DNA of 63,774 nt, counting the filler, from Basidiobolus ranarum (Eukaryota): the NCBI GenBank assembly GCA_040143965.1. It is 21 parts of 21 records of this genome, joined end to end, with 100 filler letters (N's around TTAATTAATTAA, not from the genome) between each part and the next. Parts side by side here need not be neighbours in the genome. Positions count along the whole stretch, not along the records: positions 24,391 to 27,334 come from JASJQH010002843.1; 20 more parts are not named here. One strand, written 5' to 3'. This document shows positions 20,481 to 51,746 of this stretch, one piece after another (within the stretch, counting starts at the first letter, position 1; the number at the start of each line of letters is the position of its first letter). Both the position numbers and the translations under genes were made by a program. Under the pieces are notes generated by a model, which saw only the letters and a program-made list of their open reading frames with translations, ran no database searches and was not told where the DNA came from.

Positions 20481-21640
20481 TCGACATTCTCATGGCTTAT
20501 TTTATAATGCTAGTTAAAAGGAACTGTTAACTGCGGAATTCCGCATATGGACGTTGGGTGTGACTGAGTTTGAAACTAGATAGCCGCTCATGAAAATAGA
20601 TCAAGATTTGTGCAGCTTATCCTAATTGTGGCATACTAGACAGAGCTTAGCTTAATCTGGATTCACCATCCACTCTTCTATTTGGGATCTGGAACACTAT
20701 ATCTGAGCTAACCTTAGCGCTACATCTGAGCAGAGAATGATGCATTTCCAGATGCTCCTATTCACATATCCTAGTTACGATTCAAGCAAATAAGAAGGGA
20801 ACTGGCTTAAGCGCTTACATCTCCAAGCTATGATTCCGACGTTTAAAAAACCTTGAGATTGACACTCCATATATATATGCTAACCCATCTGAGTTTAATC
20901 ATGAGAACAAAGGATTGCATGTATATGTGGATTACTATTGTATTGAGGCTTGTTCTGCAAAAGTGTTATTATTTTGCATATGATTGGTACTAGCACATTT
21001 CATCCCCTGTTTTATTTTCTACAACCGTAGAGAGTATTTCCCAGATCAACTCTCAACAGATATGTGGTAGTGTAATTGTTCAGCATCACTTTATTTCTGT
21101 ATTATGTAATTGTAGATTAATGGTATATTGCTCACATTTGCTTAGTAATGACCACATATCTTAAGTAGTTCAGCATTATCAATCCATTTAACAAATTGGA
21201 TAGATAGTGAAAGAATATTAATATCATGGGGATTTAATTTTGATAGNNNNNNNNNNNNNNNNNNNNNNNNNNNNNNNNNNNNNNNNNNNNTTAATTAATT
21301 AANNNNNNNNNNNNNNNNNNNNNNNNNNNNNNNNNNNNNNNNNNNNTCGCCTTAAAAGTAAATTCGACCATTTATTACTAGCCAATTGCGCAGGTTTAAA
21401 ATCGAACTTCCACTGTGTTAATTGATGACTGTGGGGGGGGGGAGGTATATGGCTATCTCCAAATAGATCCGATAGGAGTTGTTACTTCGTTGTATCACGC
21501 GAAGCATTCCATGGGTTGAAGCGTCTTTACAGCAGATATAGGTTGAAATATCTCGATATAGAAACTGCAGCCACGTCCTCATGTTACATAAGGTGACTTG
21601 TAATGGCCTTAGGCAACAGAACCTATTCAACAATTACACT

Positions 21641-22090
21641 ATGAAATACCTGATTCCTACCATCTTCCTTTCTGCTATCCTCTTAGCTAGCAATGAAGCT
21701 AGTGAGAGCACCCGTTGTTGGGGATCATGTGATAGTAACAAGATTTGCCTGTCAAAATGTGATGAGCAGGTGATAGGTATTGGACAATGCAAGTCACAAT
21801 GTGACTTCACAAATCCACTTAAGGGAAGAGTGTGCATCGAGTCTTGCATAAAAAGCCATGTCTTCAATACTACGGGCTTGACCGAAGCTGCCACGTCCAC
21901 CGCAAGTACAACCATCACTAGTACTCAAGTGTTATCAAGTACGGCACAGACACTATCGTCCACTCCATCTACTATCGCAACCGGGAAGGCAACTCTGAAG
22001 TACCGTCAAGGAAATTGTTTTCAAAACTGCTCCAACAATGCGGAATGTCTCGCCCGATGTGGCCAAGAATTTGGAGAATGCAAAGAATAG
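21641..22090 (+). CDS. Secreted Cys-rich protein with two CX3C-array modules separated by a Ser/Thr linker
   Basis: Signal peptide MKYLIPTIFLSAILLA from ATG 21641. Module 1 has four CX3C pairs, followed by a Thr/Ser stalk. Module 2 is cut short by a TAG stop. Confidence 0.75.
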   Translation: MKYLIPTIFLSAILLASNEASESTRCWGSCDSNKICLSKCDEQVIGIGQCKSQCDFTNPLKGRVCIESCIKSHVFNTTGLTEAATSTASTTITSTQVLSSTAQTLSSTPSTIATGKATLKYRQGNCFQNCSNNAECLARCGQEFGECKE

Positions 22091-22651
22091 CTAATTCCGA
22101 ATTTTATAAATCTCGCTATCCTCAGAAGCAGATCTAATAAGAAGTACCAATAAAGCCTGACACTATGCTATAACCGGCGAATTACTCAAGCGAATTACTC
22201 ACTCAAGCGAATTACTCCATGGGTTTTAAGGTTTGATATAAAACAAAATAAATCAATATAGCCTTTCCCGATATGGCCATAGGCTCTGTTTCCATCGCAG
22301 TCTCACTCGTTTTAATCTCAATATATTAACTGAAAGCTGGAATTAAGCCGCATAATATGTACCACTTAAGTAACATTATTCAACAACCAGATATCATTCG
22401 TACATATCGCTCAAAATATGGCCGTTCAAATCAATACAGTTTGTCCTGTATTGATTGGGCTTCATTGCTACTCTAAGTAACCACTCCAAGCCTATATTCT
22501 CCTTAAGCTTGACCTCCAACTTTAAACGTTAGTACGAAATATATTAGAGCATGTTGATTGGAATCAATTTTGACTGGTTATAGATAATCGAAACTGCTGT
22601 AAATACGAGTTTGGTGAATGTAATTTTCCATGAGAAAATCCAATTAACGAC

Positions 22652-22942
22652 GTGATCGAAACCACCAGACTTTCTCCAAGCTTCACTCTAACTACTACCC
22701 AAGTGCTGTTAAGTAAGTCACAGACACCTTCGCTCACCTCATCATCTATCGTAACCAGAAAGCCAAATCAAAAAAAGCAAAAGAAGAATTGCTTTCAAAA
22801 CTGTGCCAAAAACAAGAAATGTTTCACTCAATGTGGTCGCCTATTTAGAAGGTGCAAAGCAAAATACAACTTCTATAATATAGCTTCCAGTCTGAGATGC
22901 ATCAAAAAATGCCGTAATAAGTTTATTGCTAGTTCTAGCTAA
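22652..22942 (+). pseudogene. Tandem paralog of the Cys-rich gene, N-terminus degenerate
   Basis: TTTQVLLSKSQTPSLTSSSIVT..NCFQNC aligns with TSTQVLSSTAQTLSSTPSTIAT..NCFQNC. No ATG or signal peptide in frame. Confidence 0.65.
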
Positions 22943-24390: not shown

Positions 24391-24525
24391 TGACCAGGAT
24401 GAGCTCCACGAGCCAGAACCAGTTTTGGTGGCTCTGGTGTTGCCTCTACTAGTTGGTGCAGCCAGACTAAAGTTATTGCACATGAGAGCATAGCAGCCGA
24501 GTGAAAGAAGATTGTTAAAATGCAT
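24391..24525 (-). CDS. Secreted Ser/Trp-repeat protein, tandem copy A (3' part off contig)
   Basis: MHFNNLLSLGCYALMCNNFSLAAPTSRGNTRATKTGSGSWSSSWS, nearly identical to copy B. Confidence 0.8.
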
Positions 24526-25539
24526 GGTTAAGTGTAGTTGGAATTCTTGAATGTTCAGTATTGTGGTATTGTTATCGCTTTTGTCCTCACTTATAAATGT
24601 TTGCCTATGATAAGATTCAATGAGGCGAAGCAGATAATTGTATATAGTGTGAGTGGTATAAATCCATTCCTGATGAAGACTGGTAACCTAAACCTACTTC
24701 TTCAAGAGGAAAGGGAGCGTAGGGATAAAAGCAGCTGATATCTAAGACAGGATCTCAGTAGGTATGATTATTTTCGTGGATACTGTCAATTCATAGCTCA
24801 TCAATTGAAGCTATCTATCTCACTTTAGGGAAGATCCCTGGATTCTGGGTTACAAAGCAACAAGCATAGTTTGCATGGCGATAGGTGGCAGAGACTTAGG
24901 GCTGGGTTGTTTTGTGTTGCCTGGATCGAAAAGATACTAGCTACCATCCATCTCGATCACTACTCTAGGGCTTAGCTAATCAACTTGACTCAGGTCAGTG
25001 TTGGTGATTTAGAAATGGAGAATACAATTAGCTGTGAGTATTGCAGCGATTTGTCGACGGCACTTTCCATTATGACGTAAATTATTCCACGATGCACACA
25101 AAGTGAAGAGGTAAAATTGATGGTTAGGATTATTAGCAGTCATATTAGCAGTCATATTAGCAGGTAGATACTCAAACATCTCATCAAAGTCAACGAGACC
25201 CATCATTCTCGAAATAAACTGAACATAATCAAATGGAGAATCATCCCTCTCCTGATGATGCTTGCAGTAGAAGCAATGCCTCTCGGTGGAATAGAAATCT
25301 TCAATAATCCCTTTGTGTGTTCGATTTATTGAGTATTTAGAATTTGAAATAACTATTGTTGCTTTAATGGTCATTTTGGAATGACGAACTATAGAAACAT
25401 CATATTACTTGATTGGGATGAAATGGAATGAAATGAGGCATTGAAGGTCTCAATTTCCAGAGGTAACTAGAAATCAGTGTGGGTTGTATAGTGGAAGGGA
25501 TAAGAGAGAGGATATGTGGAGAGGTGAGATGGTAGTAAC

Positions 25540-25914
25540 TCAGTATGCAGTAGGTCTAGGTCTTGAATGAGTAGATCTACGAATAGACCAAGAGCTGGAC
25601 CATGAGGAGGAAGAGGAAGAGGAGGACCAACTGTATGACCAAGAGGGGGCTTTGGCATTGATGGTGTAGTGAGTTGGTCTGGCCGCAGATGACCAAGAAG
25701 ACGACCAGGATGAAGTCCAAGAGCTGGCTGGAGATGTCCAGGATGAGGTCCAAGAGCTAGTGGGAGACGACCAAGAAGATGACCAGGATGAGCTCCACGA
25801 GCCAGAACCAGTTTTGGTGGCTCTGGTGTTGCCTCTACTAGTTGGTGCAGCCTGACTAAAGCTATTGCACATGAGAGCATAGCAGCCGAGTGAAAGAAGA
25901 TTGTTGAAATGCAT
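25540..25914 (-). CDS. Secreted Ser/Trp-repeat protein, tandem copy B (complete, 124 aa)
   Basis: Signal-peptide-like N-terminus with likely cleavage at SQA|AP. (S/T)SSW repeats give 12 Trp. Ser codons vary at the third position in this frame. Confidence 0.85.
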   Translation of the reverse strand: MHFNNLLSLGCYALMCNSFSQAAPTSRGNTRATKTGSGSWSSSWSSSWSSPTSSWTSSWTSPASSWTSSWSSSWSSAARPTHYTINAKAPSWSYSWSSSSSSSSWSSSWSIRRSTHSRPRPTAY

Positions 25915-26967
25915 GGTTGAGTGTGGTTGGAAGTCTTGAATGCTCAGTATTGTGGTATTGTTATCGCTTTTGTCCTCACTTATAAATGTTTGCCTATGAT
26001 AAGATTCAATGAGGCGAAGCAGATAATTGTATATAGTGTGAGTGATATAAATCCATTCCTAGTCAAAACGGGTAAACTAAGCCTACTTCTTCAAGAGGGA
26101 AGGTAGTATGGGGATAGAAACATGTAGTGTTCAAGGGAGTAGGGTGATCGTCATTATTTTCGTAGACATTATCAATCTGTAGCTCATCTATTGAAATTAT
26201 CTATATCGCCATGATTTTAGCTGATGCGGTCAATTCATAGCTCATCGTGTGAAGCTCTCTATCCCTCTGTAGGGGAAATTCCTGGATTCGGGGCTACTAA
26301 GCAACACACATCTTTTGTATGGCAATAGTTGGCAGAGGTTGAGCTGATACTGACACTTTCATGTTACTCAGATAGGGTACCCAGATAGGATAGAAGAGAT
26401 ACTGGTTTGATCTCGCAATGCTATAGGGCTTAGCTATCTAACTTCACTCAGATCAGTGTTGGCACTTTAGAGATTGGGAAAATGATCAATGGTGAGTTAT
26501 GCAGTGGTTTGTCAATGGTACTTTTCATTATGTAATAAATTATTTGATGAGATACATAAAATGAAGAGATACAATGTGCTTATTAGTAGATGATCCCTAA
26601 ATGTCCCGAGTGTTATAAATATGCTACATCTAAACCCATTTTACGGCTCTTTTTCTCTATTTGAAGGAGTAAGCATGGCGGATTGAGTGAGATTGGTGAC
26701 TATAGCAGCACTACAATCATTTTCAGTGAAATAGAAATTTTTAATTTGTTAAGTATTTAGAGTCTCAATAACTGCTGTTACTTTAATGTTAATCTTGGAA
26801 TGATGAACTATAAATACAACATATGGCTAGATTGGAATGAGATGGAATGAAACGAGGTACTAGAGATCTCAATTTCCCAATGGAATTAGAAATCAGTATG
26901 TGTTATGTAGAGGAAAGAACAGTGTAAGGGATGTGCGAGGAGAGGAGGGAAGTGAAATGGTAGTAGC

Positions 26968-27334
26968 TCAGTATGTAGTGGGTGTGGGTCTTGAGCGGGT
27001 AGATCTACGAATGGACCAAGAACTGGACCATGAGGAGGAAGAGGAGGACCAACTGTATGACCAAGAAGAGGATTTGCCATTGTTGGTGTAGTGAGTTGGT
27101 CTGGCTGCAGATGACCAAGAAGAAGACCAACTGTATGACCAAGAGGGAGCTTTGGCGTTGATGGTGTAGTGAGTTGGTCTAGCTGCCGACGTCCAGGATG
27201 AAGTCCAAGAACTAGTGGGAGATGACCAAGAAGATGACCAGGATGAGCTCCACGAGCCAGAACCAGTTTTGGTGGCTCTGGTGTTGCCTCTACTAGTTGG
27301 TGCAGCCTGACTAAAGCTATTGCACATGAGAGCA
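26968..27334 (-). CDS. Secreted Ser/Trp-repeat protein, tandem copy C (first codons off contig)
   Basis: Same N- and C-termini as copy B, but with a duplicated AARPTHYT...SWSYSW module and fewer SSW units. Confidence 0.82.
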
Positions 27335-27434: not shown

Positions 27435-28174
27435 GAAGTACTCCCACTCGGCCAAAACTTGTAAAGAAGCAAGTATCGTTTGACCCCTGCACCCTATTAA
27501 CTAGTAGCGCACGTCTTGGCGATCTCAATGAAGTTAAACGAGTGCTGGAGGAGGTTCATATTGATTGCCTAACACCTAACTACCAAACACCACATAGCCT
27601 GCTTTCACCTTTGCATCTGGCTGCGAGTTATTGTCATCTGAGTCTATGCAAGTACCTCGTCTCTGTTGGTGCCGATATTAACATACAAGATGCCGAAGGT
27701 TGGACTCCATTACATTGCGCAGCTGCTGAGGGTCATGTGAAGATCCTTCAATTTCTGCTGGATGTGGATGGGGTGGATGTTAATATACTGAATGAAGACG
27801 ATGAAACAATCATGGATGTAGTCGAAGAGGATACTATTCGCGAGTATCTTGAAGGTAAAGAAACCCAATTTCATCCTCAGTTCTTAGGCAATTTCTAATT
27901 ACCACTTTTCTTATGTAACATGACTACAGAGCAACTTGGGTTTAAGGACACATCATCTGTTAACACTGGCGTTTCTCAGGGTACACACGATAATGCTGAA
28001 GTAGAGCACGATGATACAATTGACGAAGACAAGGATCGGGGTAGTGATCGCTCTAATGGAAGTGAAGGCCGTTATGCTGGTGCTAGAGCACCTTATTCTC
28101 TGACCAAGTCTAGTCTTCAGCGAAATCGCTTAGGATACATGGTGAAGTCAAACGAGGTGACATCTCATGGATGA
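27435..28174 (+). CDS. Ankyrin-repeat protein with an RVxF-type PP1 docking motif (MYPT/PPP1R12-like arrangement), 5'-partial; intron 27855-27929
   Basis: Reads KLVKKQVSFDPCTLLTSSARLGDLNEVKRVL, then ankyrin repeats SPLHLAA and GWTPLHCAA. A 75-nt GT-AG intron joins ORFs 27542 and 27920 in frame. Confidence 0.8.
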
Positions 28175-49997: not shown

Positions 49998-50519
49998 CTA
50001 TTGACGACCAGAAACACCACGTTCGTATTCGTTATCGTACTCGTCTTGTTCATATTGACGGCCATAACGAGAGTGGGGATGGTTTTGTCGTCCATTTCTG
50101 CCCGAGACACCGCGTTCGTATTCGTTATCATACTCGTCTTGTTCGTATTGACGACCATAACGAGAGCGAGGATAGTTCTGTTGACCATTTCTGCGAGACA
50201 CACCACGTCCATACTCGCTATTGTACTCGTCTTGCTCGTATTGACGGCCATAGCGGGAGCGAGGATAGTTTTGCTGACCATTTCTGCCAGAGACACCGCG
50301 TTCGTACTCGTTGTCGTATTCGTCTTGTTCGTATTGACGGCCATAGTGAGAGCGAGGATAGTTTTGTTGATCATTTCTGCCAGAGATACCGCGTTGGTAT
50401 TCGTTATCATACTCATCTTGCTCGTACTGGCGGCCATAGCGAGAGGTATTTTGCTGATCACTTCTGCGAGACAAACCTCTTTCGAAGCGGCTTTGTGATT
50501 GATGTTGGTTAGAAGGCAT
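49998..50519 (-). CDS. Hydrophilic tandem-repeat protein, five 31-aa (93-bp) units, 173 aa
   Basis: Unit RYGRQYEQDEYDNEYERGVSGRNGQQNYPRS. DNA differences between units are mostly synonymous in this frame. TATAAAA lies about 80 nt upstream (50596-50602, minus strand). Confidence 0.88.
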   Translation of the reverse strand: MPSNQHQSQSRFERGLSRRSDQQNTSRYGRQYEQDEYDNEYQRGISGRNDQQNYPRSHYGRQYEQDEYDNEYERGVSGRNGQQNYPRSRYGRQYEQDEYNSEYGRGVSRRNGQQNYPRSRYGRQYEQDEYDNEYERGVSGRNGRQNHPHSRYGRQYEQDEYDNEYERGVSGRQ

Positions 50520-51746
50520 GTTAGAGAATATTGGTTTTACTGGTTATCAAATGAATTAATATTCAAGTGTAGTGATATATTTACTCGCTGCTCGGTTTTA
50601 TAACAAAAAGTGGCTTAGAAGACTGACACGTGAAGGCTAAGCCACCACATTGAAGGATTACTCCTAAAGCAATACGCAATAATTTCAAAATATCATTCGT
50701 ATATTCTGGTATGGATGATTCTATTTCTAATATCTTCCCACTAGTATATAATTGTGTTGCCAGTATCACATCATAACATATGAAGGATTCATGATTAAAC
50801 ACTTTTCGTTAATGATGTGTAACTATATAATATTTAACACTGAATGGGAACGATAGAATTAAAATCCATGTATTTGGAGGTATCCTGCGGTGTATTTCTG
50901 TCAATGCATAGATATCTGATTCAACATATAGGTTCAGGTAAAGTCTGCACCCGAAAGAACCAATTTCAAATCAACATATGGACCCCTTTATCCTTTAAAC
51001 AACAAAAGCATCTCGGGTTTGCATTAGAAGATTTTATATCATATTCTAGGTTAGTTCTTCATAATGCATCACCAACACTCAATTATCTTTTAGTAAGCCA
51101 TTAATTCACACAATGTCAAAGTGAAGTTGATGAGATATTCTTTGGAGGCCTACTCCAAAATATTAATTTCCGTTTAGCTGATCAAGAGTAGGACTATACA
51201 ACTTGACTTCTATTTACATTTTGAAGGTGGATTAGTATGCCTGTGACACTTCAGCAAATAATGATACTTTAGATCAGTGGTAGTTGAGCTTTGCATCCTC
51301 AAACTCATGAAGCAGATTTGTTTAAAGGCTATAAAACTCTAATATATTGAATATGTTACATAGTTCGATACTGTTAAGAATAAGTAAGCTCATAAGATAT
51401 TGCACCTTTCTTTTAGTTCGTATTATGACTATGCATACTTTTCATTTATACTTTCAGTAGCAAAAAGAACTAGGAAATATCTCGACTATGAATTCATAAG
51501 CAAATATATAACCGGTAGCCTGGGTAGACATATTACAGGTGTAAGAAATCGTCTAGTCTAAATAAGCCCAAGTAACTTGGTATCGGTTGGTATCAGTTGG
51601 ATCAGTTATACACGCTATACAACACCAACTGGAGCATTAGCTCTTCNNNNNNNNNNNNNNNNNNNNNNNNNNNNNNNNNNNNNNNNNNNNTTAATTAATT
51701 AANNNNNNNNNNNNNNNNNNNNNNNNNNNNNNNNNNNNNNNNNNNN

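Follow-up and report, generated by a model that had tools for sequence, protein, structure and literature searches.

The 63,774-nucleotide stretch of Basidiobolus ranarum DNA analyzed here (hereafter the window) contains members of a gene family, coding for a protein dominated by Ser and regularly spaced Trp residues, that is real, coding and under purifying selection rather than a product of chance. Judging from their sequences, the encoded proteins would form, with a probability of about one in two, a lineage-restricted family of small, secreted, and non-enzymatic surface proteins, in which the Trp residues act as stickers for both self-association and adhesion.

The window is a series of contigs of about 3 kb with N spacers between them, and the contig of interest, C2843, is one whole contig of 2,944 bp (24391-27334) with such artificial spacers on either side. 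Its minus strand carries one complete gene, copy B (25540..25914), an intronless ORF of 124 aa (P0001), and two copies cut by the contig edges: copy A (26968..27334, minus strand), which lacks its 5' end and shows 121 codons with two Thr-His-Tyr spacer modules, and copy C (24391..24525, minus strand), of which the first 45 codons are present. On the same strand, the spacer between A and B (25915..26967) comprises a duplicated 3' flank and a promoter, and a second spacer separates B from C (24526..25539). A preliminary description of this DNA had proposed three head-to-tail units of about 1.4 kb with duplicated flanks, in an array that might extend beyond the contig. The spacings are exactly as claimed, with 1,389 bp from ATG to ATG (25914 to 24525) and 1,428 bp from stop to stop (26968 to 25540), and the flanks are 75-79% identical across 600-800 bp, but only one of the three units, copy B, is complete in the window. 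The array is also longer, with about six close copies in two arrays genome-wide.

Other features of the window are a Copia-type gag remnant (PF14223; 23743-24249) on the neighboring, unlinked contig and a fragment of an ankyrin-repeat gene (27437-27898) on the next, equally unlinked one. Two ORFs at 21542-22942 encode small Cys-rich proteins with repeated C-x3-C-x5-C-x3-C units and no Pfam match, the first of which has an apparent signal peptide. At 49998-50543, on the minus strand, an ORF without Pfam match contains about 4.7 copies of a 93-bp (31-aa) repeat rich in Arg, Tyr, Gln, Glu, and Asp, with Arg-Gly/Arg-Tyr pairs in each, and resembles a hydrophilin or else a repeat precursor.

Genome searches detected related DNA on seven contigs, the close copies being represented by six 5' halves and six 3' halves. 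Two array starts (C7131 and C7007) and two array ends, which face each other on C2325, were found. These pieces suggest two convergent arrays with six close copies in all, the single exact join being that of C13359 to copy A, whose missing start lies on C13359 with an exact overlap of 85 nt. The copy on C7007 has a TAA at codon 8, owing either to pseudogenization or to an error at the contig end. The seventh member is a divergent 93-aa paralog on C7362, upstream of which a 300-bp direct duplication of 80% identity is seen (L021:722-1332). Between the facing array ends of C2325 (L020) lie two housekeeping-type genes, one for a HECT_2 protein and one with a Lys/Arg/Glu-rich repeat tail. On C7007 (L019:8037-9269), 669 bp separate the start of the copy with the early stop from a divergently oriented gene, whose product is a secreted-looking Ser/Thr/His repeat protein of 410 aa, without Pfam match and containing seven Trp-Ser modules, each of them single.

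All seven family promoters, including that of the divergent paralog, share an upstream box, located at about -186 in copy B (26072..26100, minus strand) and conserved in copy C (24683..24711, minus strand), which is a candidate site for a regulator. Between B and the divergent paralog, this box is 80% identical, against 48-66% in the neighboring 50-bp windows. Its pattern occurs seven times genome-wide, each time ahead of a family gene, with no match for the control; since the pattern was derived from these very promoters, these seven occurrences show only that no further copy is assembled. In addition, a TATA-like element is present at -70 in copies B (25979..25984) and C (24590..24595), both on the minus strand, being located at -70 in the promoters of five close copies and at -62 in that of the divergent paralog.

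The coding nature of the family is supported by pN/pS values of 0.20-0.40 in the Ser/Trp frame for 10 of 10 pairs among five copies, these pairs sharing their history and hence not being independent, and the alignments of the repeats being approximate. Differences between copies are concentrated at third codon positions (for instance 7/8/19 over the three positions for A vs B), and all six Ser codons are used, which bears out the initial argument that synonymous variation of Ser codons favors this frame. Further evidence comes from the only homologs found in a 5.8-billion collection, the hypothetical proteins ORX88781.1 and ORX88778.1 of B. meristosporus CBS 931.73, both retrieved by each of two word-seeded searches in which the best 8,000 candidates were scored. 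These two proteins, encoded on the same 66-kb contig, resemble the query in the signal region (27% of the query aligned, at 70% identity), depart from the Ser/Trp frame after about 34 residues, and are annotated from there in two other frames, the Ser/Trp protein itself being unrepresented. The B. meristosporus orthologs may therefore be broken at that point, and the apparent mis-framing may be due to an assembly error, a model error, or a real frameshift. Nevertheless, the two orthologs can accommodate the Ser/Trp core at 23 of 23 and 19 of 23 residues, a fit reached by none of 500 shuffles in either case. For the RR-containing tail, the corresponding values are 16 of 19 (1 of 500 shuffles) and 15 of 19 (none of 500). 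At the position homologous to the stop codon of the family, a stop is possible in one ortholog and forced in the other. The front of ORX88778 can moreover be read, with the same frame shift, as a further copy, which makes this locus look tandem too.

It could be argued that the array is non-coding, or that its true product is read in the overlapping Pro/Leu/His frame in which ORX88781 is annotated. Indeed, none of the copies seen interrupts this frame, which also has an ATG, and the B. meristosporus models at NCBI both run on in frames other than Ser/Trp. However, most substitutions fall on third positions of the Ser/Trp codons, and thereby on second positions when the DNA is read as Pro/Leu/His, and the latter frame is rejected on this ground; besides, the two NCBI models part at a common point, each into its own frame, and both still fit the Ser/Trp core. 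This alternative as a whole is thus extremely improbable. Two further readings were discarded, namely the third frame, which has stops in C2843, and an acidic Asp/Gln/Glu reading of the plus strand, which has in-frame stops.

Since the orthologs are annotated in wrong frames, the family is invisible to protein-level surveys. Pfam returned no family for P0001, P0002, P0005, P0009, and P0010, a profile search against 1.84 billion representative proteins gave no match at E<=0.001, a sequence search of the PDB gave one chance match (E 4.7), and none of the 58 pattern matches of a metagenome scan was confirmed. The initial impression that the protein belongs to no recognized family thus holds in these four resources. 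Both queries are present in identical form in the ESM Atlas, possibly as entries derived from this same genome, and the best feature scores there (0.80 and 0.87) point to unnamed clusters, which are leads only. No published account of the Ser/Trp family or of the composition of the adhesive droplet was found in the searchable literature, in which few subscription journals are included. The family is apparently restricted to the genus, undescribed, and characterized by a new short module.

At the protein level, copy B contains 45 Ser, 12 Thr, and 12 Trp, and neither Asp nor Glu, acidic residues being equally absent from A and from the paralogs D and K, as first described. Residues 1-22 (25849..25914, minus strand) form a probable signal peptide, called by eye and from hydropathy, with a putative cleavage point after which the predicted mature protein has 102 aa, 11.1 kDa, and a pI of 11.9, with no acidic residue and no Cys. 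The 9-residue Kyte-Doolittle peak of the N-terminus reaches 1.9 in B and 2.3 in the divergent paralog, and the signal region is conserved in B. meristosporus; the proposed secretion is thus retained as a prediction from the hydrophobic N-terminus. The Ser/Trp core (residues 37-109; 25588..25806, minus strand) harbors the 12 Trp at spacings of 4,4,7,4,7,4,4,18,4,9,4, of which 7 out of 11 are exactly 4, in agreement with a Trp at mostly every fourth residue. Gain or loss of whole modules, also announced earlier, is seen between A and B, and across copies the number of modules and the length of poly-Ser vary while the Trp spacing and the tail are kept. The sole dibasic site of copy B, RR at residues 112-113 (25576..25581, minus strand), is invariant in the family and precedes an 11-residue basic tail. 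In 4 of 4 copies examined, there is one dibasic site per protein, RR followed by a tail of 10-12 residues. The RR pair is a candidate Kex2 site. The earlier statement that regular KR sites are lacking is therefore correct as far as the stretches between modules are concerned, but has to be completed by this invariant RR just before the tail.

AlphaFold2 predicted no folded domain, with uninformative pLDDT values of 41 and 28, and a four-copy complex prediction scored 0.01, which gives no answer either way. No consistent long-range helix or strand register was detected (1 of 24 periodicity tests significant), the two-residue steps in poly-Ser length not being counted in favor of a strand register because they can be explained by 6-nt slippage. 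The C-mannosylation motif W-x-x-W is absent from all seven proteins checked.

The short module W-[ST]-[ST]-[ST]-W (W-[ST]3-W) is found again in three further groups (single proteins or families) of secreted, Ser/Thr-rich proteins encoded by this genome; those seen in full length have an apparent signal peptide as well as acidic residues. A strict pattern, which omits some Ser codons, gave 35 matches in the genome, 24 of them in the four groups including the Ser/Trp family; as the reversed control also gave 35 matches, the raw count is not enriched. Of the 11 matches outside these groups, nine were read; eight of them encode the motif only in stop-bounded frames of 11-79 codons and one contains a stop, so that none of the nine is a W-[ST]3-W inside a long ORF. 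A looser Trp pattern returned mostly noise and was abandoned. The first of the other groups has up to seven copies, on C2131 (twice, in tandem), C4203, C5018, C5255, C6675, and C8685 (L089-L093, L095), four of them being contig fragments without starts; they are Ser/Thr-rich with W-[ST]3-W at the C-terminus, and the C8685 copy has 186 aa. The second, on C6945 (L094:4019-4693), is a secreted protein of 224 aa with seven motifs and 14-residue Trp-Thr repeats, whose single homolog among 528 candidates is B. meristosporus K493DRAFT_298863 (55% identity). Aligned Trp residues are conserved at 16 of 17 positions in this pair, against 123 of 204 positions overall (p=0.003), which is modest evidence given that Trp changes slowly in general. 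The third, on C6913 (L102:968-1681), is a secreted-looking protein with one motif and no Pfam match; it shows an acidic middle, a Lys run, a Thr tract spaced by Trp or Tyr, and then a C-terminal Cys pair.

Two readings had been put forward at the outset, a repetitive RiPP-type precursor and a self-assembling structural or adhesive protein; the second fits best and the first is poorly supported. According to the RiPP reading, Trp-containing cores would be excised and cross-linked, as in dikaritins or burpitides, by enzymes encoded elsewhere. The Ser/Trp protein resembles Kex2-processed repeat proteins and dikaritins of the UstA type in combining a predicted signal peptide, internal repeats with aromatic residues, and one invariant RR. 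B. meristosporus is moreover rich in Kex2-processed repeat proteins, 43 being listed in one survey (PMC7329392), and a class V aminotransferase gene adjoins the divergent paralog. ORX88781 and ORX88778 are not in the published KEP table, in which such mis-framed models could not have been caught. In dikaritin precursors, however, Kex2 cuts between the cores and clustered DUF3328 enzymes cyclize them (PMC9233826), whereas the Ser/Trp protein has neither Kex2 sites between its repeats nor a DUF3328 neighbor. Its modules are also fused in overlapping runs, and are embedded as well in mucin-like, acid-containing secreted proteins. The RR fits Kex2 at P2-P1 and has Ser at P4, where an aliphatic residue is preferred (PMC8528282).

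The same conclusion emerges from the flanks read, namely C7131 (19 kb), 18 of the 26 kb of C7007, C2325, and C7362, the array interior being fragmented. There, 13 ORFs were scanned by Pfam and the others by eye, and no tailoring gene was recognized beside the paralog or at the starts and ends of the two arrays. The DUF3328/UstYa, BURP, P450, tyrosinase, or peptidase neighbors expected of a RiPP locus were thus not encountered. The flanking genes, mostly of housekeeping type, include those for a mechanosensitive channel, a P4-ATPase, a WSC protein, a DHH phosphoesterase, coatomer gamma, a HECT_2 protein, an FAD-binding oxidoreductase of the cytochrome b5 reductase type, an MFS transporter, a polysaccharide deacetylase, and the class V aminotransferase. 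Neither UstYa nor BURP was detected by genome searches, the controls of which were likewise silent. As regards burpitides, Pfam detected no fused BURP domain and none was recognized in the flanks. Borosin precursors carry an N-terminal methyltransferase domain fused to the core, and the 124-aa ORF of copy B has no such domain. Yeast has a single Kex2; kexin-type P-domain genes were found here at four loci (C6895, C2655, C6903), and these matches indicate that family searches can work on this genome. Overall, the RiPP reading appears quite improbable. No DUF3328 proteins are reported outside Ascomycota and Basidiomycota in PMC7329392, and a pathway to Trp-cross-linked peptides in Zoopagomycota that dispenses with DUF3328 would be more improbable still.

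A possible, though rather unlikely, alternative is that of a linear, cationic, and Trp-rich bioactive protein, antibacterial, membrane-binding, or signaling, which would be trimmed at RR and act on gut or litter microbes. The herptile-gut lifestyle of Basidiobolus (PMC9391592) would suit such a role. The proteins are small, multi-copy, and free of acids, with a pI of 11-12 and 8-10% Trp, and the kexin-type genes could supply the protease. Nevertheless, their charges are located at the ends and in the spacers, whereas those of Trp/Arg antimicrobial peptides are interleaved with Trp; the module is also shared with acidic proteins of 186-224 aa, and there is no Pfam match.

It is doubtful, too, that the family consists of non-catalytic binders of wall polysaccharides, in which the row of Trp would stack on chitin, chitosan, or glucan rings and thereby tether or mask the wall without any self-assembly. 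Regularly spaced Trp in Ser/Thr-rich secreted proteins are in line with this proposal, as are the polysaccharide deacetylase gene two genes away from the divergent paralog and the secreted Ser/Thr/His repeat gene, with its single Trp modules, adjoining one array start. However, such neighbors may be there by chance, and no match to a carbohydrate-binding domain was obtained; known carbohydrate-binding modules use folded scaffolds.

In the model of a self-sticking surface coat or glue, which we favor, the Ser/Trp protein would enter the secretory pathway, where a Kex2-type protease would cut at the single RR and so remove the short basic tail. The remaining Ser/Thr chain, unfolded and perhaps O-mannosylated, would then display the short W-[ST]3-W stickers. 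Trp residues four positions apart would lie on one face, of a strand or of one helical turn, so that stickers could stack on one another and on hydrophobic surfaces, while the basic ends would bind anionic ones. Spores or hyphae would thereby be covered with a coat or an adhesive film, for which the additional gene copies would provide bulk protein, with a module number free to vary. About six tandem copies plus a paralog, sharing the TATA-like element and the upstream box, are what would be expected where dosage matters. In the same line, the variable number of modules, their reuse in mucin-like proteins, and the lack of processing sites between them point to a material rather than to a precise peptide. 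The capilliconidia of Basidiobolaceae are tipped with adhesive material (PMC13370150), and hydrophobin candidates are reported in only one of six Zoopagomycota proteomes (10.1101/2022.08.19.504535), in a text that does not mention Basidiobolus by name; together, these two observations make the coat or glue idea plausible.

A precedent is provided by the repellents, secreted repeat proteins forming adhesive amyloid coats (PMC3133707). Like Ustilago maydis Rep1, the Ser/Trp protein is a repetitive fungal protein, predicted to be secreted, with a proposed role in surface properties or adhesion; unlike Rep1, whose 12 repeats are cut by Kex2 into peptides of 34-53 aa (same source), it has contiguous modules of 4-14 residues, one RR, and no detected sequence similarity. 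With this single RR, release of the repeats as separate Kex2 peptides does not apply to it. Known repellents also appear to be much more hydrophobic. The family probably works like a repellent-type surface protein without being one. It shares with hydrophobins the small size, predicted secretion, multiple copies, and a proposed interfacial role, but not their eight-Cys pattern, as its mature part lacks Cys, and it has neither a Pfam match nor a predicted fold; a search of the genome for hydrophobins was empty, with its control likewise silent. Finally, ALPS-type amphipathic motifs have sparse bulky aromatics in an uncharged Ser/Thr background, which is reminiscent of the 4/7 spacings in the first Trp block of B. 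The Ser/Trp protein differs from them by its predicted secretion, by a Pro in each 7-residue spacer, and by a helical register that is non-significant in most copies.

A bolder proposal, which the sequences make conceivable but unlikely, is that W-[ST]3-W is the sticker of an undescribed class of Cys-free adhesive or coat proteins, with the Ser/Trp family as a main component of the capilliconidial glue or spore coat and the three other groups joining it. Should the family merely be a lineage-specific, mucin-like secreted protein, its value would be that of an annotation fix. A protein of about 100 residues built on a four-residue module can be tested at low cost and is attractive as a biomaterial. 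If it does form a coat or glue, it would be a first candidate adhesive for the carriage of Basidiobolus spores, and would inform on how an early-diverging fungus, possibly without hydrophobins, handles surfaces.
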